The notes below the pieces were generated by a model. That model was not told where the DNA came from. It did not search any database and saw only the letters and a list, made by a program, of their open reading frames with translations. 64,000 nt of DNA from Alphaproteobacteria bacterium UBA3864 (GTDB taxonomy: Bacteria; Pseudomonadota; Alphaproteobacteria; CAAGCB01; CAG-977), in contig DGGW01000066.1 of NCBI GenBank assembly GCA_002393065.1, positions 435 to 64,434 of the forward strand, in the 5' to 3' direction. Below are positions 482-50,385 of this stretch, piece after piece. The position numbers were made by a program, and so were the translations under genes. Numbering within the stretch: position 1 is the stretch's first letter; each line of letters starts with the position of its first letter.

Positions 482-1477
482 ATGTGTGTTGATTTTAAGG
501 AATATCATCGCGAATACTACACTTACCTTTTCGACCATATCGATGAATTCATCGCGTTGAAGGACGCGATCGACGCGACCCCTGAAATTTATTCGCATGA
601 CGGCGGCGGAACAACGAGTATTTTAAAAGGAAAATTCGAACTTCGTTTCGGGGGGTTGATCACGCTTTACGCGAACGGTCAATGGTGTGATCGGAAAAAG
701 AACGTCTTTCTGTATAAGATGTTGCAATGCCCGATGGGAAGCAAGGACGTTAAAGTGTACGGCTGGAACAACGAGGAAAAAGAATTTGACATATATTCCC
801 GCGTTTTTCCCGACACCGACACGCTGTTCGAACAAGCGCGGCTTGTCGCTCAATACAAACCGCAGACGGGAAAGAAAATAATTCCCCTTGAAACGCGAAA
901 CAGGTTGGCGGAGTTGTTTCAACCTCTGAAAGAATACACGCGCCATGCGGTTAACGACTTTAAATGTGTGGGCTTTGCCCGTCCGATTAACGGTCAAATC
1001 ACCGAAAAGAACATTCAAACGGGTGTTAAAACGCTGTTGGAAAATTGTGCGAAAGGACAATTGGAAAGGGTGAAATACGTCCTGAACAACTTCCCGCAGA
1101 TTTTCGGCAGGGCGGAAAGCAAAGACCTGCTTTTATCCGCCGCGAACGATTTGAGTATTTTGCGCTTTCTTTGCGATTGCGGCAAAACGGACGTTTCCGA
1201 CGCACCCGTTATCCGGAACGCGTGCAAGAGCAAAAAGGACGTTAAAGAACGTCTCGATTTATTGTTTGAACTGGGGGCGGACATCAATGCGAAAAACGGT
1301 GACGGTGAACCGCCGATCGTCGTTGCGGCGGAGGCGTTCAACATCAAAGCGATCCGCTGGCTTTTAAAGCACGGGGCGGACAAGACGGCGACGAACGCGA
1401 ATGACGAAACGGCGCGGGACATCGTTCTGAAAAACAAAGACGTTTTTAATTGGCGGGGAATTTTGAAACTGCTTTAG
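482..1477 (+). CDS. Ankyrin-repeat protein: an N-terminal domain of about 190 aa with unknown function plus C-terminal ANK repeats.
   Basis: A strong SD (AAAGGAGG) lies 8 nt upstream of the ATG. The C-terminus carries ANK consensus (LLFELGADINAKNGDGEPPIVVAA..LLKHGADKTATNANDETARD). Confidence 0.7.
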   Translation: MCVDFKEYHREYYTYLFDHIDEFIALKDAIDATPEIYSHDGGGTTSILKGKFELRFGGLITLYANGQWCDRKKNVFLYKMLQCPMGSKDVKVYGWNNEEKEFDIYSRVFPDTDTLFEQARLVAQYKPQTGKKIIPLETRNRLAELFQPLKEYTRHAVNDFKCVGFARPINGQITEKNIQTGVKTLLENCAKGQLERVKYVLNNFPQIFGRAESKDLLLSAANDLSILRFLCDCGKTDVSDAPVIRNACKSKKDVKERLDLLFELGADINAKNGDGEPPIVVAAEAFNIKAIRWLLKHGADKTATNANDETARDIVLKNKDVFNWRGILKLL

Positions 1478-1546
1478 CAAACGTCAGCTCCTGACGCATC
1501 ACTGTTTTAGAATATCCTTATCAACAATCGAAAAAGGAGAAAGAAA

Positions 1547-2398
1547 ATGATTGATATGAACACCGTTACCGACGAACAGGCGGATTATATGAACACGCCG
1601 ATGGAAGCCGTTGAGGAAATCGGAACGCTTTTAAACGAATTGGCGGCGTTTTTCCCGAATGAATTGGAAGACTATCTGGAAACGGATTTCTGCGAACGGG
1701 TGGCACGTCGTATGGTGTGGGACATTCCGGCAGGCTTTGCGGCTCTGCCCGAAAAGTTCCACGCGGTTGCGTTCCATCACGCCGTTCTGACCGATGATTC
1801 CGATATCGTCGAAGCCTTCCTTAAAGCGGCGAAGAAAGCGAAAATGAACATCGGCACCGACTTTTGCGATCCCGAATACGGCACGCCGCCGCTGATGATG
1901 GCGTGCTTTAACAAAGCCAAAAACGCTTTTGTTTCTTTGGTCGAAAAGGGCGGGGCGTCCCTGTCCGTCAAAGACGCTAAAGGACGCGGCTTGGCGTACG
2001 CGTGCGTGTTTTCGCATAATCTGGCTTTTATGAAGTGGGCGAAAAAGCACGGCGTCGTCTTTGATTTAAGCGATCCCGTCGATGCCGTAATACCTCTGGC
2101 GGGGGCGGAAGGCTCGGTCGCCGTTTTGCGCTGGCTGATCGAAGATCTGCACGGCGACGTGAACGCGGTCGATGCGGACGGCCGCACGGCGATGTATTAC
2201 GCGTGTATGTTCGGGGCGAACGACAACATCCTGTACCTGATCGACAAAGGCGCGTATCCGACCGAATTATCCGCGGCCGCTTTCGTTCCGATCGTTGAGA
2301 GGATCAAGGCACTGCGCGAAAAGGAACCGTCCGGCGTCGTCGATCTGGAAATCAAAAGCGAGATCAAAAAGCTGACGGACTTCGCGAAAAAGATCTGA
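1547..2398 (+). CDS. Ankyrin-like repeat protein; member of a tandem paralog pair.
   Basis: SD AAAGGAGAAAG. Contains an FHHAVL module, GTPPLMMA...LVEKGG and DADGRTAMYYAC motifs. It is clearly paralogous to the next gene. Confidence 0.65.
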   Translation: MIDMNTVTDEQADYMNTPMEAVEEIGTLLNELAAFFPNELEDYLETDFCERVARRMVWDIPAGFAALPEKFHAVAFHHAVLTDDSDIVEAFLKAAKKAKMNIGTDFCDPEYGTPPLMMACFNKAKNAFVSLVEKGGASLSVKDAKGRGLAYACVFSHNLAFMKWAKKHGVVFDLSDPVDAVIPLAGAEGSVAVLRWLIEDLHGDVNAVDADGRTAMYYACMFGANDNILYLIDKGAYPTELSAAAFVPIVERIKALREKEPSGVVDLEIKSEIKKLTDFAKKI

Positions 2399-2409
2399 CG
2401 GCTGAAAGG

Positions 2410-3255
2410 ATGACCATGTTTGACATGACGGAAAGCTTCCTGCCCGAAGGGGTGAAAAGAGAGCGGGCGCGGGTGGATTCCGAGCTGGCGGATCTCTTTT
2501 CCGACGACACGGTGAAGGCGTATAAAAACAGCCTTTTCTTTGCGGAACTCTGCGTGCGCGACGTGCGGGCACTCGTAAGCGGTTTTTTCGCTTTGCCGCA
2601 GGAACTGCGCGCGATCGCTTTCCACCATGCCGTTCTGATCAATCGCGCCGATATCTGTAACGCCGTTTTGTGCGTCGTCGCGACGCTTAAAGCGGACGTG
2701 AACACGGACTTTTCAACGGATGTGTTCGGGATCCCCCCGCTGATGACGGCCTGCGCCCGTCATTGCAGGCGTTCTTTTCTGGCTTTGGTCGAAAAGGGCG
2801 GGGCGGATCTGTCCGTGTGCGACGAACAGGGATACACGTTGGCGCGCGCCTGCGTTGAATCGGACGACCTGTCGTTTATGCAGTTGGCTCAAAAGCGCGG
2901 CGTCGTTTTCGACGCGGCCGATCCGGTCGATGCGCTGGTGCCTCTGGCGGCTAAAAACGACGCGTGGGGTGCCGTGCATTGGCTGATCGAAGACCTGAAC
3001 GGCGACGTGAACATGACCGACGAAGAAGGGTGGACGGCTTTGGATTACGCCTGTCGGCACGAAAAGAGGGCGATTTTCCTCTACCTGCTCGACAAAGGCG
3101 GAAAAATGACCGACAAAAGGGAGATTTTGTTCGGGCTGATCATCGAACAGATCAGGGAACTGCAGAAACGATTGCCGTCGGCGGAGGCGGACGATAAAAT
3201 CGGCAGACACATCGGCACGATGCGTTTTCTGATGACCGTCAGCGGCGGCGATTGA
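2410..3255 (+). CDS. Ankyrin-like repeat protein, paralog of 1547-2398. The true start is probably the ATG at 2416.
   Basis: Collinear similarity to the upstream gene (FHHAVL, GIPPLMTA..LVEKGGADLSV, WLIEDLNGDVN, DEEGWTALDYAC). The SD AAGGA fits the ATG at 2416 better than the one at 2410. Confidence 0.65.
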   Translation: MTMFDMTESFLPEGVKRERARVDSELADLFSDDTVKAYKNSLFFAELCVRDVRALVSGFFALPQELRAIAFHHAVLINRADICNAVLCVVATLKADVNTDFSTDVFGIPPLMTACARHCRRSFLALVEKGGADLSVCDEQGYTLARACVESDDLSFMQLAQKRGVVFDAADPVDALVPLAAKNDAWGAVHWLIEDLNGDVNMTDEEGWTALDYACRHEKRAIFLYLLDKGGKMTDKREILFGLIIEQIRELQKRLPSAEADDKIGRHIGTMRFLMTVSGGD

Positions 3256-3266
3256 ATTAGGGGGTA

Positions 3267-4265
3267 ATGATGCAAAACAAGGAAGATAAAGCGGAGCAGG
3301 GGACTTACGTCCGCTTCGCCAGAGTGTTGGATCTGGCCGTCAGAATGTTCGGACGGGGGCTGACGAAGGACGAGATCTGCCAAATCATGAAATGCTCGAA
3401 ACGGACGGCGGATCGCCTGATCGGCTGTTTTCAGGAAGTGTATTCCAACGGTTTGGAAGAATCTTCGAAAAACGGCAGGAAAACATGGAAAATCCTCGGC
3501 GGCGAAGATCTGCCCAAATCTTTGGAGATAGACGACGAAGATATTCTCCTGCTGAACAACCTTGCCGATTTGATGGCGCAACAGAACAGGGAAGCGGACG
3601 GCGACCGTCTGACAAAGATCCGCGCGAAACTCGTTCGGGCACTCGGAAACAAAGAGCGGGATCTGAACAATCTGGAATTTTCCGAAAGGAACGTCTTCCG
3701 GCCGGGAATCAAGGCTCAAATCGATCCCGAAATCGTCAGAACGATTCGTCGGGCGATCAGGGAAAAGAAAGTCCTCAATATCGAATATTACAATAAAAAG
3801 AGCGGGAAAATCAGCGAAGGCGCGCTCGAACCTTACGGCATTTTGTACAGCGATCGGGCGCAATATCTGCTGGCGCGCCACTGGGACGGTTATTTCGGCG
3901 ACGCGATCCATCAGTTCTTGCTGTCGAACATTCGTTCCGCCATCATGACGGACGAGGCGTTTGAAGGCGTCGATTTCGATATGAACGAATATACGAAAGA
4001 CTCTTTCGGCGTGTATCGCGAAGAACCGTACGACGTCGAATGGAAATTCAGCGCGAAGGCCGCGCCCGAAGCCAAAAAGTTCATCTTCCACCCCGGACAG
4101 GAAATCTTTGAGAACGAAGACGGCACGCTGACCGTGAAATTCCGAGCGGGCGGCACGCTGGAAATGGCATGGCATCTGGCGACGTGGGGAAAGCAGGTGG
4201 AAGTCGTACAACCCGCGGACTTTTGGCGGCGCGTCGCGAAAGCCGAACGGCAGCGGTGGCAGTAA
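3267..4265 (+). CDS. WYL-domain transcriptional regulator with wHTH-WYL-WCX architecture, BrxR/CapW/PafBC-like.
   Basis: SD AGGGGG. N-terminal HTH (LTKDEICQIMKCSKRTADRLI). WYL domain (VLNIEYYNKKSGKISEGALEPYGILYSDRAQYLLARHWDGY...FLLSNI). C-terminal WCX-like beta domain (GTLTVKFRAGGTLEMAWHLATWGKQVEVVQP). Confidence 0.85.
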   Translation: MMQNKEDKAEQGTYVRFARVLDLAVRMFGRGLTKDEICQIMKCSKRTADRLIGCFQEVYSNGLEESSKNGRKTWKILGGEDLPKSLEIDDEDILLLNNLADLMAQQNREADGDRLTKIRAKLVRALGNKERDLNNLEFSERNVFRPGIKAQIDPEIVRTIRRAIREKKVLNIEYYNKKSGKISEGALEPYGILYSDRAQYLLARHWDGYFGDAIHQFLLSNIRSAIMTDEAFEGVDFDMNEYTKDSFGVYREEPYDVEWKFSAKAAPEAKKFIFHPGQEIFENEDGTLTVKFRAGGTLEMAWHLATWGKQVEVVQPADFWRRVAKAERQRWQ

Positions 4266-4568
4266 ACTTTCGTTTGTATTTGACGGGTTAATCTGCCATA
4301 CTGTTTCCGTCAGCTTTTCTGACAGGGACTTCACAATCCCTTGCACAAACCGGTGCGGTTCAGAGATTCCGCATCGTCAACAAAACAAAATCTCCCGATC
4401 CATACGACCGGGAGATGGTGTTATGTTCAAGCATTTTGCCAAAAGCATCATGCCGTGTTTGTGCGGTTTGTGAACTCCCGGTCGCCAAGGGGAAAATCCT
4501 CCGGCGGCCGATTGTTTTAAGATTAACACTGTCGGGCGTCAAAACCTGACGATTTAAGGAATGAAAAA

Positions 4569-5573
4569 ATGAAAGCGGATTTATCGAAAGCTGTTCGGAT
4601 TATTAATAATCTGGATATCGATACTGATTCTGATCTTAACATCGTTGTTCAAGTCGCCAAATCTTTTGAAAAAAAAGAAGAAGAAAACAGAACAAAGAAA
4701 AAAGAATTTCTTCAAGCGATTGATGCGATTAACGGCTTGAAAGTCGATAACTCATACAGTTTTGATAAAGAATTCCGAGAAAATCACCCGATTTTAGGAG
4801 ATCTGGAAAACAATATATTTTTTGAAAGCCCTCTTTTTGAAGCCGTGCAAGTCGGAATGAAAGAACCGCAATATACGACGGCGTTAGGGTGGTTTTTACA
4901 AGAAGATCAGCAAGCCTGCCGGTTGTTTATAGAAACGCTCGCCGAAGTAGCAAATTTTCCGGAAGAATTTAAAAAGATATTACCGACTGAACACACTCCG
5001 ATTGAAAGCATATGGGAATATTCGGGTAAAAAAAATTCACAAAATGAAGAAGACGATGAAACGGATTCTGAAGGTAAAGAAGAAAAAAAAGCCGAGGAAG
5101 CCACATCCGAAACTTCTGATATCAGTGCCGGCAATGATGTGAAAAATCGCAAGGAAATAGACAATCTTTTGATTTGGGGAAGTGACAAGAAAAAACACGG
5201 TATCGTTATTGAAATCAAATTCGGTGCAGATTTGCACAATGAACTTCCATGTTATCAGCTAACAGCTTTAAAGAAGATGGGATATAATCCCTGCCAGAAA
5301 AATGAAAAACGTTGTGTTTTCCCAACAAACAGGGATTTGAAATGTGAAGATTGTCAGAAAAACAATTCTCTGATGTGCGTTGTTTTATCAACCAATCGCA
5401 TATCGGCTCAGAAAATCGAAGAGAACGACGGATGTCGAAAAATATGGCATAGGGTTTTGTGGTGTCATTTTATGCCGAAACTCAGTAAAAAAATGACACA
5501 ACATCAAGGGAATGGGGATTACAGGAGATTCCTGTCCTCGTTATGGCGTAAAGTGTTCGAAACTGAAGGGTAA
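4569..5573 (+). CDS. Hypothetical protein encoded in a strongly AT-rich segment. It carries a putative PD-(D/E)xK nuclease motif and a C-terminal Cys cluster.
   Basis: Codon usage and GC are clearly lower than in the flanks. D...EIK motif (LLIWGSDKKKHGIVIEIKFG). CxxC-type cluster (CQKNEKRC...CEDCQ). It lies directly downstream of the WYL regulator on the same strand. Confidence 0.55.
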   Translation: MKADLSKAVRIINNLDIDTDSDLNIVVQVAKSFEKKEEENRTKKKEFLQAIDAINGLKVDNSYSFDKEFRENHPILGDLENNIFFESPLFEAVQVGMKEPQYTTALGWFLQEDQQACRLFIETLAEVANFPEEFKKILPTEHTPIESIWEYSGKKNSQNEEDDETDSEGKEEKKAEEATSETSDISAGNDVKNRKEIDNLLIWGSDKKKHGIVIEIKFGADLHNELPCYQLTALKKMGYNPCQKNEKRCVFPTNRDLKCEDCQKNNSLMCVVLSTNRISAQKIEENDGCRKIWHRVLWCHFMPKLSKKMTQHQGNGDYRRFLSSLWRKVFETEG

Positions 5574-5577
5574 GAAA

Positions 5578-6237
5578 ATGGAAAACACGAAAAATTCTGA
5601 AATTTTCTCTAATGAAGAATTAGGAAAAGCGATCGAAACATACAATCTCTATATTGCAAACAGAGAAACTTTTAAAAAAGTTTACAATGAAGATTGTGAA
5701 TATGATGAAAACAAGTCTTTTATAGAAAATGCAAAAGACGAGATTAACTGTTATACGGCAAAAGGTAAAATAGAAACAACCGTGCCGGATGCAATCATGC
5801 TGGCCGCATATGTTTTTGAAAAAGCGGTTTGTCCTGTTTTGAAAGATAGGGAAATCGAAATTTCAAAGATACATTGGATACCAACGTATGGAGAAGATCC
5901 ATTTCCAGAATTTGATATAAAAATTGAGAATGAAAATTCACAAAAGCCTGTTTTGCTTGTCTTGGATTGCGAAGCTTTTCGCATTGGAGGAGCCTTTGTT
6001 GCAAAAGAAACAAAGAATAATATAACACTTGAAAAAATTTTTAAGGGTAAAAAAGAAGAATTTATAGATAAATCTGATGAAAAGGATTTATCAGAAAATA
6101 TTGTATTTTCAAAAAATAAATTTGAGTTTTCTTCAAATACTCCGCTTTCTTTGGATTGTTTGAACGAAAAAATCATTCCTCAAATCACAAAGGATTGTAA
6201 GAATTTAATAGAGGAGGCGTTCCTTCAGAATAACTAA
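5578..6237 (+). CDS. Hypothetical protein, AT-rich, operonic with 4569-5573 (4-bp gap).
   Basis: SD GAAGGG 6 nt upstream of the ATG at 5578. The ORF-track start at 5512 lies inside the upstream gene. No recognisable domain. Confidence 0.5.
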   Translation: MENTKNSEIFSNEELGKAIETYNLYIANRETFKKVYNEDCEYDENKSFIENAKDEINCYTAKGKIETTVPDAIMLAAYVFEKAVCPVLKDREIEISKIHWIPTYGEDPFPEFDIKIENENSQKPVLLVLDCEAFRIGGAFVAKETKNNITLEKIFKGKKEEFIDKSDEKDLSENIVFSKNKFEFSSNTPLSLDCLNEKIIPQITKDCKNLIEEAFLQNN

Positions 6238-6315
6238 ATCTTTTTCCGGCGGCGGGACGGACTTGCCGCCGGAATGATTTTTACGGTGTTCGAATCAAGC
6301 GTCAGGTTTTGTCGC
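6238..6315 (+). repeat. Copy A of a 78-bp near-identical direct repeat. It contains a GC hairpin (ccggcggc-N11-gccgccgg, 6246-6272) followed by a T-rich tract, so it looks like a terminator plus a conserved downstream leader.
   Basis: About 95% identical to 6833-6910. Both copies sit immediately 3' of a stop codon and 5' of a gene with a similar RBS context (TATGAAAGG...AAATG). Confidence 0.8.
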
Positions 6316-6367
6316 AGATACATGATATAAGGAAGATATCATTCAATCATTATGAAAGGGAACCGAA

Positions 6368-6826
6368 ATGAAAAATACGTTGTTGGACATTATTCAATCT
6401 TTTGAACATCCGATGGATTTGGATGATCAGGAAGTGCGCGAAGTGTTGGATTCGATTGATGATTTAACGCATCGTCAGATAAAAAACGCCGTTGAAGCGT
6501 TGTTGGATAAATACAAAAGTATTCAAAGAGGATATGAAATCAGAGGTGGAATACTTTCCAAAAAGATTGAAAAACTTATCCAAGAACTGGGAAAGAAAGG
6601 TGAAAAACTTTCTCCCGATTCAATAGAGGCAATGAAGGAATTTTTGGAAGAAGAAGGATACGTCGTCTACAAAAACGCTTCAGCGATTGCGATTGATATG
6701 GTCGAATTGCCTCTGAAATTGAGAAATGAGTTTCAGGCGGAAAAGAATCGTATGGGAACAATAACATACGAAAAGAAAAAAGGAATGGTTCTTGATGCCT
6801 TGAAAGAGTGGGCGGGCGAAGAATAA
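6368..6826 (+). CDS. Hypothetical small acidic protein (152 aa), AT-rich, bracketed by the 78-bp repeats.
   Basis: ATG with an upstream GAAAGGGAA. Clean ORF with no recognisable domain. Low GC like the two preceding genes. Confidence 0.5.
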   Translation: MKNTLLDIIQSFEHPMDLDDQEVREVLDSIDDLTHRQIKNAVEALLDKYKSIQRGYEIRGGILSKKIEKLIQELGKKGEKLSPDSIEAMKEFLEEEGYVVYKNASAIAIDMVELPLKLRNEFQAEKNRMGTITYEKKKGMVLDALKEWAGEE

Positions 6827-6832
6827 TTCCTA

Positions 6833-6910
6833 ATCTTTTTCCGGCGGCGGGGCGGACTTGCCGCTGGAATGATTTTTACGGTGTTCGAATCAAGCGTCAG
6901 GTTTTGTCGC
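6833..6910 (+). repeat. Copy B of the 78-bp direct repeat. The hairpin is at 6841-6867 with a G-U wobble-preserving substitution.
   Basis: Same sequence as copy A with three substitutions. The c>t change keeps RNA stem pairing as G·U. Confidence 0.8.
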
Positions 6911-6963
6911 GGGCGGGTGATACAAGGGAAAATATCGTTCGACCGTTATGAAAGGAATATGAA

Positions 6964-7667
6964 ATGACCAAAAAAGCGAAAGTGAAAAACTGGAGAGAGT
7001 TTTTTGAATCCGATCCGAAGGAACTTCCGTTCGCCGACATGAACGTTCGCGACGAAATAGGGCGACGATGCTGATCGGCGCAGCCCGTTCTTCCGCCGAT
7101 GTCGTGCGGCGCATCATCGATGCCGGCGCGGACGTCAACGCGGGGGCGGAGGGCAATTCGATAACCCCGCTGATTTGCGCCGCTGTCAACAGCGCTTATC
7201 CCGCCGTGATCAAAATGTTGGTCAAAGCCGGCGCGGATATCGAGGCAAAAATCAATCCTGAAGGCGAAGACCGCGGAACGCCTTTGCAGGCGGCGTTGGA
7301 AGCGAAAAATTTCAAAATCGCGCAGGCGTTGATCAAAGCGGGCGCAAACGTCAACGCAAAAGACGGTAAAGGAAGAACTCCTTTGATGATAACCGCTTGC
7401 CACGACGGAAACTGCGACATAATAGAGGCTTTGTTAAACGCGGGAGCGAAAATCAACGAAAAAGACAATGAGGGAAGAACGGCATTGATGCGTGCGGCCA
7501 AGTGGGAGACCCCCGATATCGTCAAACTGCTTCTTAAAGCCGGTGCGAACGTCAACGCTGTCGACAAAAAAGGCAAAACGGCTTTGGATTACGCGCGGGA
7601 AAAGGGACGCGACGAAATCGTTTTGCTGTTGGAAAAAGTTGTGGCAGGCGAAACAGCGGAGGAATGA
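6964..7667 (+). pseudogene. Ankyrin-repeat protein gene interrupted by a -1 frameshift near 7060-7068 (the pieces are 6964-7074 and 7068-7667).
   Basis: The frame-1 ORF ends ...DMNVRDEIGRRC*. The frame-3 ORF continues ATMLIGAARSS... and then 6 clean ANK repeats. Joining at g7062 restores the ANK consensus DEIGATMLIGAA. The break lies in a GGG run, so a sequencing error is possible. Confidence 0.5.
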
Positions 7668-7752
7668 CAAGGACCGATGACGGATTGATCGCCGCCGGAT
7701 AGAGATTTAAAAGGGATTTGGAAATCATTGATTTGTTAATCGTCAAAACAAT

Positions 7753-7786
7753 AAAAAAGCTTTCGACCGATCGGTCAAAAGCCTTG
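7753..7786 (-). terminator. Rho-independent terminator downstream of tRNA-Gly: a palindromic stem around gaccgatcggtc followed by a U-run on the minus strand.
   Basis: Minus-strand reading: gcttttgaccgatcggtcgaaagcTTTTTT. Confidence 0.6.
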
Positions 7787-7790
7787 AAAT

Positions 7791-7865
7791 TGGAGCGGGC
7801 GATGGGAATCGAACCCACGACATCAACCTTGGCAAGGTTGCGCTCTACCCCTGAGCTACACCCGC
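7791..7865 (-). tRNA. tRNA-Gly (anticodon GCC).
   Basis: The reverse complement reads gcgggtgtagctcaggggtagagcgcaaccttGCCaaggttgatgtcgtgggttcgattcccatcgcccgctcca. It is a cloverleaf with a GTTCGATTC T-loop and ends in CCA. Confidence 0.9.
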
Positions 7866-7922
7866 ACTCCCTTTGAACAGTTGCGATTATATATAAATAA
7901 AAACGATATGCAAGAACTTTTT

Positions 7923-10900
7923 TTAAAAAATATTCGGTACCAGTTTTCGGATGACGCCGGGGGCGACGGCCGACAACGGATTGACGGATATTTCCGGCGT
8001 CGGCAGGACGCCTTCGATTTTATAAGAAACGCCGATCAGCCCGCCGCCTTTTTCGCCCGTCAGCATTTTCCCGACAAGGGGGACTTTGCCGACCAACCCG
8101 TTCACGCCGTAAAAAGGCATCATCGTTCCGGTCAGGTCCAAAAAGCTTTTTTGACCGTTATAACTTCCTTCCAGCGTGATGCCCAGCGACGACCCCGCCA
8201 CCAATCCGTCGTTTACGGTTAATATCCCGTTGTTATGGGCGAATTGCGCTTCCGCTTTTTCGAAGTGCAGTCCTTTCCCCGTCAGCGTGTCGATCAGCCC
8301 CGTGAACGACGTCAGACGCAACAGACGCGTTAAAAGCGGCTGTTCTGCCAATCTGAAATCTTCGATTTCGAGCAATCCGGAAGCGCCCTTTTCGGTGTTG
8401 TATTGCCCTTTGATTTTAATTTTTCCGCCTTTGACGGTTGACATGGATCCCAGCAGTTTCATCAGAGAACCGGCGTCGTCGGACGTGAAAGCGAAGGCGG
8501 ATTCGTTGTTTTTCGGATCGGGATAAAACTTGAAACGGAACGGCGTGCGTTTTTCGCCGATTTTTCCCGTCGCGTCGATTCGTTGCGGCGCGCCGCCCTT
8601 CAAAACGGCCGCGAAAGCATTGTCTTCGGCGGCGGAATCCGACAACCAGACTTTGTTGAAAACGGCGTTGATGACGTAAAGCGGTTCATCGGCGTTTTTA
8701 TTCGGTTCGTCCTTGTCGCTATTGATTTCTTTTCCGGTTTCGTCCCCGCTTTTTTCTTGCTTTTTTATCAGTTGCGATAGATCCAGCGACAATCCGTTTG
8801 CGTCAATCCGGTTTTTTCCTTTGACATTGAAACGGATGCGGGCTTTCAGATCGGTTTTACCGGCGACCAGAACGGGAACGTTGATGCGGGCGATATTTCC
8901 GTCGGGAGCGAAATCCATGGACGTTTTGACGATGTTTCCGGCTTTGTCCGAAACGGTAATGTCCGGTATGGCTTTAAGGGCGTTGTTTTCGAACGTCATT
9001 TTCAGGCGCGCCGTTCCGCCGGTTTCCGCTTTTTTCACCCAGTTGATCATGGGGAAATCGAGCGCGGCGGGAGTAAGATCGGCGTCGGCCGACGCTTCAC
9101 CCGTCCCGTTTCTGAACAGGCGTAAAAGAAAGCGCACCGGAACCGTTCCGACAACGTACGGCGTAGCGGCGTAATCGACGCCTATATCCTTTCGCGCGGC
9201 GTCGGTGACTTGTCCCGTTACGGCCAGATCCGTCGAAACGTCTTTCTGACCGGTGAAGTCCTGAAACAGTTCGGCGTGAACGGCGCCTTCCCGCGCCAGA
9301 GCGTCGGCCGTCAGTGTCAGTCCTTTTTCGTTGACGGAAAGATCGGCGTCGACATCCTGCAGGGCGATGAAGTCGAAAGGATAGCCTTTAAACGCGGCCT
9401 TGTCGGTTTTCGCGTCGACCGAGAACGCGACATCTTCCGGTTTTAAATCGTCTTTGAGCGGGAAGGTCAGCTTTAACAATCCCGTCGCCGGTCCGGACAG
9501 GTTTTCGGGCCCGATTTGCGTCGTTTGGCGTGTCAGACCGAGCCCCGGCGATAAAACGACGGACATCGCGTCGGACAAATCGGCGACTTCCAGCGGAACG
9601 GACAGGTCGAAATAGGGGACGGGACGATCCAGCCCCGTAAAAGCCGCCCGCGCGTGACGGGATACGAGACCGGCGGATTTCGCGGAATAAATACTGATGA
9701 CGATATCCTTTAAAGAATAGTCGATTTTACCGTCGGCGTCCGTTACGACGGGCATGCCGTCCATGTAGGTCAGGGCGACGTTCCGAAGACCGTGCGTTAT
9801 GTCAAGCTTTGTTACGCCGAACCCCGTCCCGTCGTCGCCGAACGCCATATACAGCGACGCGTTCGGAACGACGCCTTCTTTAACGTTGCCGACGACCCAG
9901 TCGTAAACGTCTGGAATACTGCTTCTCGGCCAATAATCGCGCGCCTGATCAATGGAAAAGTTTTCGGCCGTTGCCGTCAAAACGGCGTTCAGCAACGCCG
10001 GATTCTTTTTGGTCAGAGCGGCGTTGACGTTATCGACTTTGAAATTCCCGCGAAGTTTCGCGCCGCGTCTTAAATCAACGGCGATGGCGGGCAGGGAGAG
10101 CGTTTTGTCGCGTTTGTTCCATTCTCCGTCGATTTTGAAAGAGGCGACGTCATAATATCCGCCGATATCCCGCGGCAGAACGATGTCGCCTTCCGTCCCC
10201 GTCAGAGTGAAAGAGGCCTGACGGAGGATGTCGTGCCATTGAAACTTGTCCGACGGATACCGGAAGGGGCGCGTGTCGATTTGCAGGGACAGCGCCAAAG
10301 TCAGCGGGACGGACACGCCGTTCAGCAAAGGATATTTTTCCGCGCCGCGCAGCTTTTTCAAATCGACGTCGCTGATCAGCAGTTTTATCGGAACGAACGC
10401 CGTGTGAGACCGCCATCGCGCCGACAAGGCGGCATGAACGGGGCGACCGGCCGTTTCGGCGGTGAAATCGGCGGTGACTTTGTAACGTCCGAAACGGCGG
10501 ACATAGGAAATCGAAAAAGACGGGAAATTGAATTTCGAATTGTTGGCCCGATCGGTGATTCCGATGCGGGCATTCAGAATTTGAAAACGTGTCGGCTCGG
10601 TGTGGCGTCTGAAGATGTCGGCGATCGTCGGCAGCAAAGGCTCTTCTCCCGTTTCGGCGGATGTTTTTTCTTCGTCGCTTTCCTGCTCGGAACCGGCGTT
10701 TAAAACGATGTCGACCTTCGGATCGAAAACGGCCAGACGGCGCGGCGCCACTTTGCCGCGCAATAACGATAAAAGGCGGAAAACGACCGTCGCTCGCGGG
10801 ACGTCCGCCGCGAAAGCATCTTTTTTGGAAGCGTGCAGTTCGGAAATTTCGATATGGACGGGGCTGGACCATTTGTCCCAAACCAGTCGGGCGTCGCCGA

Positions 10901-47400: not shown

Positions 47401-50385
47401 ATGGAATGGAAGGATATTATAGGCAAAACGGTTTATCATAAAGTTTTTGGAGAAGGAAAAATAAAATCTTGTGATGGAAAACGCATAGAGGTTAGCTTTG
47501 GCGTTGGAGAAAAAAAGTTTTTTTTCCCAGAGGCTTTTAAGTATGGAGATTTATATGAACGGAAAGATCAAGAACTTCTGAAACAACAACGTCAAGAAGA
47601 GGAAAGGCTCCGTCAGGAAGAGGAGCGAAAGGCTTGGAAACATTTTGAGCAACAACGACGGGAAAAGGAAAGACGCAGTCAAGAAGCGCTGAGACGTCGG
47701 CGGGAAGAGGAGCAAAAGGCCCGGGAACTCCGTGAGCAACAATGGCGTGAAGAGGAAAGGCGTCGTCAGGAAGAACTGAGACGTCGGCAGGAAGAGGAGC
47801 GAAAGGCTCGGGAACTTCGCGAGCAACAACAATGGGAAGAAAAAAGGCGTCGGCAGGAAGAGGAAAGACATTGGCGGAAAGTAGTAGAAAAAGAGCTGAA
47901 TAGTCCTTTGACCGACGAACAATGGGCCGCGATTTACAATGATGACGACGCGTCTTTGATCGTCGCGGGGGCGGGGTGCGGCAAAACGACGACGGCTTTG
48001 GGAAAAATCGTTTATCTGGTCAGGTCCGGCAAAGCGAAACTGGAAGAAATTTTACCGATTTATTTCAATAAGAAAAACGCTGACGAAATGAACGGTAAAA
48101 TCATAGATATTTTCGGGAATACGCAAAAAATAGCTTACGACTATCACAGTGTGGGCTTGAAGTTTTTAAAAGAATCCTGCCCTGTAGAAAAAACTGAAGA
48201 TATGATACGCCGGATATTTAAAGATTTTCTCGATGATAAAAAAAGCGAAGATTTAATCTGCCGGATTTTTGATTTCATCGTGCGATATATGTATACCGAT
48301 AATGAACGCACGATGGAAATGTTTCCGAAAGGCTTTGACGATTTGTCCGTTGAAAAAAAAGTTGAAGCGTTGGAAGATGATTGCGAGACGTTAAACGGTG
48401 AACGTGTCAAAAGTCCGGCGGAGGCCGTGATCGCGAATTTCCTGTTTACGCATCACATCCCCTATGTTTACGAGAAATGGTTTAAATCTTGTTATCCTGA
48501 TGCATATCCGATGAAACCGGATTTTTATGTGCCTTTGGGGGACGGAACTGATCCGAAACACGCCGTTTGGATCGAACATTGGGGCATTGAATTCGACAGT
48601 TACGGAAATGAACGGGCCAGATGGCTGGATGAAAAGGGGGAAAGGGATTATATCGAAGACAAGAAACAGAAGCTGGCGGAATATAGAAAAAACAATGTCA
48701 AACTGATCGAGTTGTTTTTATCCGATTTTAAAGACGACACGCTGATCGATAAATTGAAAACGAAATTGGAAGAATTCGGCGTGGATACAAGCCGGGGAAT
48801 GACCCGCGATGAAAGAATAAGGTATATTAAAAAACTGATTAAAACAAAAAAATTAGAATCATTTCAAAATTTTGTTCAACGGTGTATAGAGCTTTTAAAA
48901 AGCAATAAACACACATCGCAGGATATTCCTAAAATTCATAAAAACGCTCTTCGCGATTTGGAAAAACGCGAAATGGAAAGGGTGAAAGAATTTTACAGAA
49001 TCGTCTATTGCGTTATGAAGGAATACGAAAGACGGCAAGGGGAAGAGAACGGTATTGATTTTGCGGATATGCTGATAAAAGCGCCGGCGAAAATCGCCGA
49101 CGCGGAGCTTCGGTACAAATACATCATCATTGACGAATATCAGGATATTGACGAACTTGATTATGAACTGATTTCCGCAATTCAGAAAAAAACGAACGCG
49201 AAAATCTGTTGCGTCGGCGATGATTGGCAGGCGATTTATCGTTTCAAAGGGGCAGATCTTGGTTTCTTTTCAAATTTCGGGAGGTATTTTCCGAATTTCA
49301 AAACATACCGTGTTCAGCAAACATTCCGAAACGGCGCGCCGTTGATCGATATTGCCGGAAAGTTTATTCAAAAAAACGACCGGCAGTTAAGAAAGACAAT
49401 TCGTTCCGATAAAAGTACGTTCCTGAAGGCCGTCCGCTATCATGAATTTGAAAGCCGGGGAAGAGAAAAGGACGTAGATCGATTGAACTGTCTGTTCGAT
49501 ATTTTAAACCAGCCGGACAAGGATAATTTTCTTATCATCGTCAGAAACAATAGCGATTTTAACAAATATTTTGATTGTTTGGGCGAAGACGTTTCCAGTC
49601 TTTCGGACGTTGAAAAGGCTTTGCGGCGAAAGTTTTCCAAAAATATCGAAGTTCGGACGGCACATAGGTCAAAGGGGCTGGAATACGATTATGTCGTCGT
49701 TTTCAATACAGCCTGCAGAATGACGGGTTTCCCGTCTCTGATGGATGATGATCCCGCGATTTCGTTTTTGTTGCCGGAAAAAGAGGAGTATTCTTTGGCG
49801 GAAGAACGGCGGTTGTTTTATGTCGCTCTGACGCGGGCTAAAAAAGGATGTTATCTGCTTGTTCCGAAATTTATGCCGTCGTGGTTCTTTTTTGAGATTC
49901 AAGACGCTATCGGCAAAGACAATATCTTTGATTCCGACAACGCCTTGCTGGCTACTTGCCCATGGTGCGGTAGGGAAATGGAACGCAAACAAAGAAAGGA
50001 TGAAACAAAAGCAATATTTTACAGCTGTTCATCCTATCCCGATTGCAAGTATTCTGCGCCGAAAGGCTTTATCGTTAAAAACTGCGATGATGTCGAAAAG
50101 CTGATAAAAGAAAAAGCCGAAAAACAAAACAGACCGGCATCCGTGTATGTCTATGATGAACGGAAAAAAGAGCTCGACTTCATGGATTGCACGCTTTTTG
50201 AGAATGCGAAGGATAAACGCCCCGCGGACCGAAGCGTTGATGTTTATATCGTGATCAATGATGTAAAGAATTGTTCCGAAGTTAGAAACTTTTTGATAAA
50301 ATTAAACCGCGAACCCGTTTTGTTGAATTTATCCGAAAACGATATACCGGAACAATTCATAAAAAACGTTTTCGGAACGCTGTGA
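47401..50385 (+). CDS. UvrD/PcrA-like superfamily-1 helicase (994 aa) with N-terminal charged tandem repeats, an inserted Vsr/DUF559-like PD-(D/E)xK endonuclease domain and a C-terminal topoisomerase-type C4 zinc ribbon.
   Basis: Walker A LIVAGAGCGKTTT. Motif II IIIDEYQDI. Motif III CCVGDDWQAIYRFKGAD. Motif VI YVALTRAKKGCYLL. Internal nuclease region SPAEAVIANFLFTHHIPYVYEKWF...PDFYVP...VWIEHWGIEFD...KQKLAEY...LIEL. Zinc ribbon CPWCG...YSCSSYPDCKY. Low GC. Confidence 0.8.
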   Translation: MEWKDIIGKTVYHKVFGEGKIKSCDGKRIEVSFGVGEKKFFFPEAFKYGDLYERKDQELLKQQRQEEERLRQEEERKAWKHFEQQRREKERRSQEALRRRREEEQKARELREQQWREEERRRQEELRRRQEEERKARELREQQQWEEKRRRQEEERHWRKVVEKELNSPLTDEQWAAIYNDDDASLIVAGAGCGKTTTALGKIVYLVRSGKAKLEEILPIYFNKKNADEMNGKIIDIFGNTQKIAYDYHSVGLKFLKESCPVEKTEDMIRRIFKDFLDDKKSEDLICRIFDFIVRYMYTDNERTMEMFPKGFDDLSVEKKVEALEDDCETLNGERVKSPAEAVIANFLFTHHIPYVYEKWFKSCYPDAYPMKPDFYVPLGDGTDPKHAVWIEHWGIEFDSYGNERARWLDEKGERDYIEDKKQKLAEYRKNNVKLIELFLSDFKDDTLIDKLKTKLEEFGVDTSRGMTRDERIRYIKKLIKTKKLESFQNFVQRCIELLKSNKHTSQDIPKIHKNALRDLEKREMERVKEFYRIVYCVMKEYERRQGEENGIDFADMLIKAPAKIADAELRYKYIIIDEYQDIDELDYELISAIQKKTNAKICCVGDDWQAIYRFKGADLGFFSNFGRYFPNFKTYRVQQTFRNGAPLIDIAGKFIQKNDRQLRKTIRSDKSTFLKAVRYHEFESRGREKDVDRLNCLFDILNQPDKDNFLIIVRNNSDFNKYFDCLGEDVSSLSDVEKALRRKFSKNIEVRTAHRSKGLEYDYVVVFNTACRMTGFPSLMDDDPAISFLLPEKEEYSLAEERRLFYVALTRAKKGCYLLVPKFMPSWFFFEIQDAIGKDNIFDSDNALLATCPWCGREMERKQRKDETKAIFYSCSSYPDCKYSAPKGFIVKNCDDVEKLIKEKAEKQNRPASVYVYDERKKELDFMDCTLFENAKDKRPADRSVDVYIVINDVKNCSEVRNFLIKLNREPVLLNLSENDIPEQFIKNVFGTL
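47580..47880 (+). repeat. In-frame tandem repeat with an 87-bp period (29 aa, ELRRRQEEERKARELREQQW-type), 2 clean plus about 1.5 degenerate copies, inside the helicase gene.
   Basis: 47689-47775 matches 47776-47862 at about 88% nucleotide identity. Confidence 0.7.

Follow-up and report, generated by a model that had tools for sequence, protein, structure and literature searches.

A predicted nuclease of the PDDEXK_4 clade and its acidic partner behind a WYL regulator and a structured leader in an alphaproteobacterial genome

A 64,000-nucleotide (nt) stretch of contig DGGW01000066.1 from Alphaproteobacteria bacterium UBA3864, which we refer to as the window, contains a gene for a putative nuclease of the PD-(D/E)xK superfamily (gene A) followed directly by a gene for a smaller acidic protein (gene B). 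The pair is preceded by a transcription regulator with helix-turn-helix (HTH), WYL and WCX domains and by a conserved structured leader, and a terminator-like hairpin closes the A-B transcription unit (Table 1). A first-pass annotation of the locus had proposed that gene A encodes a PD-(D/E)xK nuclease with a C-terminal cysteine cluster that could bind zinc and would act as the effector of an AT-rich cassette. The extent of the open reading frame (ORF) and its ATG start are confirmed, and the region is indeed AT-rich, with guanine-plus-cytosine (GC) contents of 0.377 for gene A and 0.308 for gene B against 0.532 for the whole window. The assignment to a restriction-endonuclease fold with a conserved motif also stands, whereas the residue numbers given for the motif and the cysteine cluster as a defining feature do not. 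Homologous loci are designated below by L and proteins by P, each with a number.

Table 1. Features of the gene A-gene B locus and of the loci compared with it. Coordinates are those of the window unless a locus is named; aa, amino acids; pI, isoelectric point; pLDDT, predicted local distance difference test score.
Feature	Coordinates	Strand	Details
HTH-WYL-WCX transcription regulator	3267..4265	+	Pfam WYL 5.9e-11, WCX 6.8e-11, HTH_23 7e-4
Putative leader promoter	4274..4302	+	-35 TTGTAT 4274-4279, 17-nt spacer, -10 CATACT 4297-4302; inferred, read from sequence
Conserved structured leader	4325..4520	+	Long closing helix; hairpin 4390-4416; sRNA-Xcc1-like element 4406-4491
Terminator-like hairpin of leader	4480-4509	+	TTGTTTT at 4512-4518, ~50 nt before gene A start codon
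Gene A ORF	4569..5573	+	334 aa, ATG start; divergent PDDEXK_4-clade nuclease of PD-(D/E)xK superfamily (predicted)
Nuclease domain of gene A (residues 73-334)	4785..5570	+	hhalign coverage, invariant columns, strand/helix order
Catalytic candidates of gene A	E99 4863-4865; D198 5160-5162; E215 5211-5213; K217 5217-5219	+	Invariant columns
Acidic disordered insertion (residues 153-193)	5025..5147	+	Between beta-1 and beta-2; pLDDT 30-41, pI 4.2
Cys-rich insertion (residues 238-266)	5280..5366	+	C242, C249, C259, C262; possible small Zn knuckle
Gene B, acidic partner	5578..6237	+	219 aa, pI 4.7; start codon 4 nt past gene A stop
Terminator-like hairpin closing A-B unit	6244..6274	+	13-bp stem, 9 GC pairs, then TGATTTTTAC
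Leader copies	L003:7747-7952; L005:7540-7757; L006:6102-6308; L020:7956-8152; L001:11237-11439
Platform compared	L020:6936-9400 vs window 3267-5573

The family of gene A is recognised through its relatives. Its homologues number 12 proteins among 5.8 billion clusters, a profile of the close family (A1) retrieved 26 matches at E ≤ 0.001 from 1.84 billion representative proteins, and tblastn against plasmid and phage collections returned no match in either. The link to a known family is supplied by the distant members, which are about 260 aa long. The Pfam family PDDEXK_4 (PF14281) is passed or approached by 11 of the 25 aligned members, with a best E of 2.5e-11, the hidden Markov models (HMMs) of the PADLOC candidate PDC-S26 are matched by 12 of the same 25, and one relative carries the NCBI name 'PD-(D/E)XK nuclease family protein'. 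P0015, P0016 and P0021, whose own PF14281 scores are 30-33 bits, are reached by the A1 profile at E 1e-12 to 1e-17, and an hhalign comparison of 12 close homologues with ten PF14281-positive relatives (A8) gave Prob 99.8% and E 9.1e-29 over residues 75-331, pairing EIDNLL with RIDxLI and IEIKF with IEAKF. The canonical PDDEXK_4 protein of L020 falls in the same register, where its LKEENSSKLLAWLLDP, RIDILLID and VIENKYG lie opposite MKEPQYTTALGWFLQED, EIDNLLIW and VIEIKFG of gene A. A profile of verified members was needed for a significant link; hhalign of gene A as a single sequence against one PDDEXK_4 protein placed the register correctly with a non-significant score. Homology to PDDEXK_4 members that pass the family threshold is thus demonstrated by both the A1 profile search and hhalign.

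The window protein itself gave no match to PF14281 at E ≤ 0.1, the gathering threshold of the family being 22.3 bits, and its close homologues carry no precomputed PF14281 annotation. PDC-S26 is defined by an HMM match in a single gene of about 400 aa, and gene A has no PADLOC match and encodes 334 aa next to a separate partner gene. Since it lies below the thresholds of both families, gene A is not filed here as a Pfam or PADLOC family member. Direct scans of Pfam, NCBIfam, PADLOC and PHROGs with the proteins of gene A, gene B and gene C, a third AT-rich gene described below, yielded nothing above noise, for example RNase_H2_suC, HisK-N-like and histone H1 matches, and the gene A family profile found in the PDB only low-complexity matches to exosome CSL4. 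On the strength of the profile evidence, we nevertheless assign gene A with high confidence to the PDDEXK_4 clade, as a divergent member with an intact catalytic signature.

The signature lies in the segment that the first-pass annotation had singled out (EIDNLLIWGSDKKKHGIVIEIKFGADLH, residues 196-223), at other positions than it had named. The proposed D195, E207 and K209 are all lysines, and the actual motif consists of D198, E215 and K217, so that the aspartate and the glutamate are separated by 17 residues instead of about 10. These three residues are found in 25 of 25 aligned members, and the conservation on which the earlier proposal had been staked is therefore clear. The complete set of invariant positions in the alignment comprises G77, E99, D198, E215, K217, L226, W293 and W298, while identity of the members to the window protein is as low as 18-30%. 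Judged from the alignment, the retention of E99, D198, E215 and K217 at such divergence is beyond chance, and these residues form a candidate active site to which the first core helix contributes E99, strand 2 contributes D198 and strand 3 contributes E215-x-K217.

An AlphaFold 2 model of gene A has a mean pLDDT of 72.9, with 85-95 in the core, and proceeds from helix 99-127 through strands 145-151, 195-205 and 208-217 to helix 226-236 and strand 268-274. The alpha-beta-beta-beta-alpha-beta core is thereby present in the predicted model and carries the motif residues on strands 2 and 3 as stated above. In a fold search of the PDB the model matched MspJI first (E 2.8e-3, prob 0.94), followed among the top matches by VC1899, Cdn1, Card1, Can2, FokI, MunI, AspBHI and BamHI; in BFVD the top match was a phage 'PD-(D/E)XK nuclease superfamily protein' (E 2.2e-3, prob 1.00, template-modelling score 0.58). 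Nucleases of this fold therefore rank first or dominate in both searches, although weakly, as neither search gave a match at E ≤ 0.001. The absence of such a fold would have spoken against the first-pass proposal, and the predicted structure agrees with it to this modest extent.

The nuclease core of gene A is interrupted twice. The acidic low-complexity run noted earlier is present (EEDDETDSEGKEEKKAEEATSE, residues 160-181) and belongs to a lineage-specific, disordered insertion with pLDDT of about 30 that is missing from the distant family members, so it is not a family feature. The protein is acidic overall because of this insertion; its nuclease half has a pI of 9.3. The other interruption, between the core helix and strand 4, is rich in cysteines. 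The reported C-x6-C...C-x2-C pattern exists, at positions 242, 249, 259 and 262, and begins 25 residues after K217, not about 50 residues past the motif; further cysteines are found at 117, 228, 270, 289 and 299. The cluster was considered as a conserved zinc site of the family and rejected, since four of the 12 close homologues (P0003, P0004, P0010, P0012) and all distant members lack the insertion. The eight homologues that carry it all retain C249, C259 and C262, and the fourth cysteine varies, which makes a facultative zinc knuckle possible in that sub-lineage. By the alignment, both the cysteine cluster and the acidic stretch are lineage-specific insertions and not features of the family.

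Gene B is kept directly downstream of gene A in every close locus. A partner gene of 195-223 aa on the same strand, close to gene A or overlapping it, is present in nine fetched loci and in the window; this count covers loci in which the contig runs past gene A and no downstream gene is called as truncated at the contig end, and leaves out L004, a near-duplicate of L003, and L006, L013 and L014, which end too soon for a full partner. Seven distant loci likewise have a partner of 195-213 aa that closely follows or overlaps the A-like gene, and these distant partners are related to one another. The charge pattern is also maintained, with pI 4.1-4.8 for all partners and 9.6-11.1 for gene A in the six distant loci scored (L007-L012). 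The family to which gene B belongs is unannotated and comprises only 10 proteins, and neither Pfam nor PADLOC models matched gene B. Several hhalign attempts between gene B and the distant partners gave E from 0.27 to 0.009, with collinear N-termini and no significant link, and a PDB fold search put PebS and Bet v 1-like proteins on top at prob ≤ 0.14, none of them credible. Neither domain nor fold searches detected in gene B the DNA-binding domain expected of a type II antitoxin; its acidic charge and its coupling to gene A are consistent with an inhibitor. Gene B was also compared with the C-terminal half of PDC-S26, of which it could have been a detached form, and with the 212-aa gene that follows PDC-S26 in L020, and no similarity was found in either case.

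Across the loci, the A-B pair is found repeatedly in defence islands and in mobile DNA. Its neighbours are SIR2-STALD, TIR, SRA-HNH, Nmad2, MazG_C and UDG proteins in L010, AbiEii in L009, an IetA-like AAA protein together with HNH and WYL proteins in L015, an integrase in L011 and an AAA_21/AAA_15 ATPase in L005, and the GC content of the pair is below that of its flanks in most loci. The close loci derive from uncultured Alphaproteobacteria.

The arrangement in L015 can be described further (L015:2973-6409 and 7682-9204). The gene for a 672-aa AAA+ protein (PADLOC IetA, 1e-35) lies 10 bp in front of the A-B pair of an intermediate family member, and the pair is followed by an HNH_3 gene and a second WYL/WCX regulator with an uncharacterised 186-aa gene, forming a dense, uncharacterised defence cluster.

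Upstream of the pair, the regulator is maintained in 5 of 5 close loci. Its HTH_23 (residues 24-56), WYL (155-225) and WCX (253-325) domains give it the architecture of the BrxR/CapW-like regulators, and PADLOC WYL models match it at up to 1.5e-25. The 303 bp that separate it from gene A (4266-4568) contain the structured leader and the putative promoter, with a transcription start predicted near 4309. A consensus scan did not flag this promoter, whose (C/T)ATACT and GTTTGTA boxes are conserved in four aligned loci, with TTGAAC-18-TATACT in L001. No other segment of the locus is as strongly conserved as the leader, whose nucleotide identity is 98% in L005, 87% in L006 and 84% in L003, compared with 72-79% in gene A. 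The leader does not occur in the distant A-B loci. It was considered as a dispersed repeat or miniature inverted-repeat transposable element and rejected, as it is single-copy in the window.

The leader is predicted to fold into a large multibranched structure with a minimum free energy of -88 kcal/mol (z = -6.7), and positions 4406-4491 match the full Rfam model of sRNA-Xcc1 (RF02221, model positions 1-87) at 32.5 bits and E 8.8e-4. This score and those of the copies in L020 (35.6), L001 (30.6) and L005 (29.1) all lie below the RF02221 gathering score of 53. In the L001 copy, the bases G, C, G and C at positions 4397, 4409, 4480 and 4509 are jointly replaced by A, T, A and T, which preserves the 4397:4409 pair of the hairpin, the 4480:4509 pair of the terminator and the alternative 4409:4480 pair, which belongs to the outer stem of sRNA-Xcc1. 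A terminator/antiterminator switch would be expected to show such a four-position covariation, which is read here from one divergent copy. The other copies have more of their substitutions at unpaired than at paired positions (11/76 vs 5/140, p = 0.0055). The leader may be a cis-regulatory attenuator or a small RNA. In Xanthomonas integron cassettes sRNA-Xcc1 itself precedes the toxin gene symE (bioRxiv 10.1101/2025.06.18.660453), in the APSE phage it precedes an ORF6N gene (PMC7313666), and in Xylella fastidiosa Temecula1 five tandem homologues at a spacing of about 381-386 nt are reported at positions 1,313,466-1,315,082 within a genomic island (PMC12189769), a regularity that suggests repeated leader-plus-small-gene cassettes.

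The same regulator and leader also occur in front of a different gene. A metagenome scan with a 22-nt core of the leader retrieved five contigs (L016-L020) with the same ankyrin-WYL-leader arrangement, in which the position of the A-B pair is taken by a canonical 398-aa PDDEXK_4 / PDC-S26 gene (Pfam 75.5 bits, PADLOC 2.6e-26). Homology of these contigs to the window stops at 4517, just past the leader terminator. In L001 the leader is missing before gene A and present before a neighbouring canonical PDDEXK_4 gene. As the same WYL regulator and leader precede either the A-B pair or canonical PDC-S26, cargo swapping is indicated, and the comparison of these loci suggests cassette exchange at a defence hotspot.

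Downstream of gene B lies gene C (6368-6826, 152 aa, AT-rich), which was considered as a further member of the system and rejected, being not conserved in the other loci and bracketed by a duplicated 135-nt segment. The two copies of this direct repeat, of about 135 nt (6237-6371 and 6832-6967), are 91% identical over the first 96 nt and contain a terminator-like hairpin and a region with a ribosome-binding site and ATG; in L005 the segment occurs only once, behind gene B. Gene C looks like an extra gene cassette inserted by recombination at the repeat. The description of gene A as the effector of the cassette is plausible in a modified form, in which the unit consists of genes A and B and the third AT-rich gene is unrelated.

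Several further features of the window were recorded. Three consecutive ankyrin-repeat genes (482-3255) lie upstream of the WYL gene, the third ending 11 bp before the WYL start, and a fourth ankyrin-repeat gene downstream (7068-7667) matches the PADLOC candidate PDC-M72A at 7.4e-30; the ankyrin-repeat array is kept in 4 of 5 close loci. A tRNA-Gly(GCC) gene on the minus strand (7791-7865) adjoins the island, as would suit an integration hotspot beside a tRNA, and the islands of L020 and L015 are also near a tRNA. A second AT-rich island on the plus strand (47401-50385, GC 0.39-0.44) carries the gene for a UvrD/REP-type helicase of 994 aa that ends in a Top1-type C4 zinc ribbon; this gene, too, may have been acquired horizontally for defence or repair.

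Given its family, its acidic partner and its place behind a WYL regulator and a conserved leader, gene A is most likely the killing component of a bacterial defence or toxin module. Its product would be a metal-dependent nuclease from a very divergent and rare branch of PDDEXK_4 that acts as the DNA-cutting effector of a two-gene module. The protein of gene B, apparently coupled to it in translation, most likely binds the gene A protein and would either neutralise it, as an immunity protein or antitoxin, or gate its activity. In this alphaproteobacterial clade the module would be silenced at two levels, by the adjacent HTH-WYL-WCX regulator and by the terminator-ended leader of about 200 nt, and its expression would require a signal, for example phage infection or DNA damage, that relieves repression or termination. 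To the explanation as a whole, a nuclease effector working with gene B and held silent by the regulator and the leader, we give a slightly better than even chance.

A number of observations weigh against this explanation. Gene A has no direct match among Pfam, NCBIfam, PADLOC and PHROG models, and a PDB sequence search found no solved structure that matches it. Its core is split between strands 1 and 2 by the 40-residue acidic insertion, and its overall pI is 5.4. Homology between the window gene B and the distant partners is not demonstrable (hhalign E 0.018, Prob 2.5%), and the gene B model, with a pLDDT of 84, yielded no fold match in the PDB and no recognisable domain. The leader folds equally well on the opposite strand and shows almost no independent sequence variation, so that it could equally be an operator array acting at the DNA level. 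Finally, the defence reading is one of guilt by association, because neither PDDEXK_4 nor PDC-S26 has a demonstrated function.

The same evidence can be read in other ways. The pair might be an addiction module, a type II-like toxin-antitoxin or toxin-immunity pair that stabilises the host island or a mobile element and has no anti-phage role. The opposite charges of the two proteins in the six distant loci scored, the tight coupling or overlap of the genes, the low GC content of the pair relative to its flanks, its position beside integrases, in prophage-like DNA and next to other toxin-antitoxin genes, and the occurrence of sRNA-Xcc1-type elements before the toxin gene symE in integron cassettes would all be accommodated by such a module. 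Gene B, at about 200 aa, has no recognisable DNA-binding or antitoxin domain, however, the putative toxin gene comes first in the order, and a dedicated WYL regulator with SIR2, TIR, SRA-HNH, AbiEii and IetA-like neighbours is more typical of immune systems. We consider a pure addiction function unlikely, while noting that addiction and defence roles are compatible and not mutually exclusive.

It is less probable still that gene A is a modification-dependent (type IV-like) or sequence-targeting restriction endonuclease whose target would be recognised by gene B or by the N-terminal helical region of gene A. The best PDB fold match, MspJI, is modification-dependent, AspBHI is also among the matches, no methyltransferase lies near the pair in the window, and an SRA-HNH type IV enzyme is its neighbour in L010; on the other hand, the fold matches are weak and concern the generic catalytic core only, no SRA, YTH, EVE or other modified-base reader domain was detected in A or B, and the strongly acidic nature of gene B argues against DNA binding. 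We regard as equally improbable that gene A is an inactive, degenerate PD-(D/E)xK domain that serves to bind nucleic acids, or that it takes part in recombination or mobilisation of the island. The breaking of the core by a disordered insertion, a family without any tested member, and a locus marked by cassette exchange and the 135-nt duplication would be in line with it. A non-catalytic gene A is hard to explain, however, because all four catalytic-type residues are invariant in members only 18-30% identical to the window protein, and the pair in the window has neither an integrase nor a transposase coupled to it.

If the favoured reading of the locus, with its gated two-gene module and its leader, is true, it would add a defence or toxin system and explain an orphan RNA family; if gene A is inactive or non-toxic, it is another hypothetical island protein. 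PDDEXK_4 is a widespread predicted nuclease family that PADLOC lists only as a candidate defence gene, and the A-B pair would represent a minimal and very rare two-gene variant of it, in which the acidic partner suggests a built-in inhibitor or gate. The two cargoes can be argued to be functionally interchangeable, as the same regulator and leader drive either A-B or PDC-S26, and the leader is a candidate cis-regulatory RNA related to sRNA-Xcc1. A bolder and rather doubtful extension would see the WYL regulator and the sRNA-Xcc1-like leader as a portable control platform that gates whichever toxic nuclease cargo is plugged in by means of a terminator/antiterminator switch, possibly read by a nucleic-acid-binding WYL domain. 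The sRNA-Xcc1 family would then be a cis-acting safety leader for toxic mobile-element genes (symE, ORF6N, PDDEXK_4) and not a virulence small RNA, and A-B would be a new two-component nuclease/inhibitor defence system.

Among known families, the closest comparison is with PDDEXK_4 itself, a family of the 'PD-(D/E)XK nuclease superfamily' defined by Steczkiewicz et al. in 2012 with its function listed as unknown (PMC3424549). Gene A shares with it a first-helix glutamate in an '(E)xxxSxxLAWLL'-like helix (KEPQYTTALGWFL in gene A), a strand-1 glutamate, the (R/E)ID strand 2, the IE(N/I/A)K(F/Y)G strand 3 and a subsequent helix with a conserved tyrosine. In contrast to the canonical family, the window protein and its 11 closest homologues are below detection on the Pfam HMM, and the gene A branch has in addition some 70 helical residues at the N-terminus, a C-terminal helix with the motif W...LW...RF(L/R)SSLWxK, two insertions specific to lineages and, downstream, an obligatory gene for the acidic partner. 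PDC-S26, an unvalidated single-gene phage-defence candidate of PADLOC built on PDDEXK_4 and named only in passing in one paper, is alike in that the canonical gene fills the same slot behind the same WYL regulator and leader in L016-L020; it differs in length, about 400 aa against about 260-335 aa for the gene A type, which is without the C-terminal half of PDC-S26 and is paired with a separate acidic protein not included in PADLOC. The pairing of a basic nuclease gene with one for a small, strongly acidic, co-expressed protein resembles colicin DNase-Im or barnase-barstar as a functional analogy only, as A and B have no sequence or fold relationship to either.

The control region also has counterparts. 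With sRNA-Xcc1, a mobile-element small RNA of Xanthomonas, the leader shares the outer stem and two inner hairpins, and, as with symE and ORF6N, the next gene on its strand codes for a protein that may be toxic. The sRNA-Xcc1-like element differs in scoring only 29-36 bits and in forming part of a larger leader, about 200 nt long, whose terminator follows further downstream. BrxR/CapW regulators control defence systems. The window regulator appears to be co-oriented with the three upstream ankyrin-repeat genes, starting 11 bp after the third, and is separated from its presumed target by a structured leader within a 303-bp spacer, unlike BrxR/CapW; in its succession of HTH, WYL and WCX domains and in its position directly 5′ of a candidate defence operon it corresponds to them.

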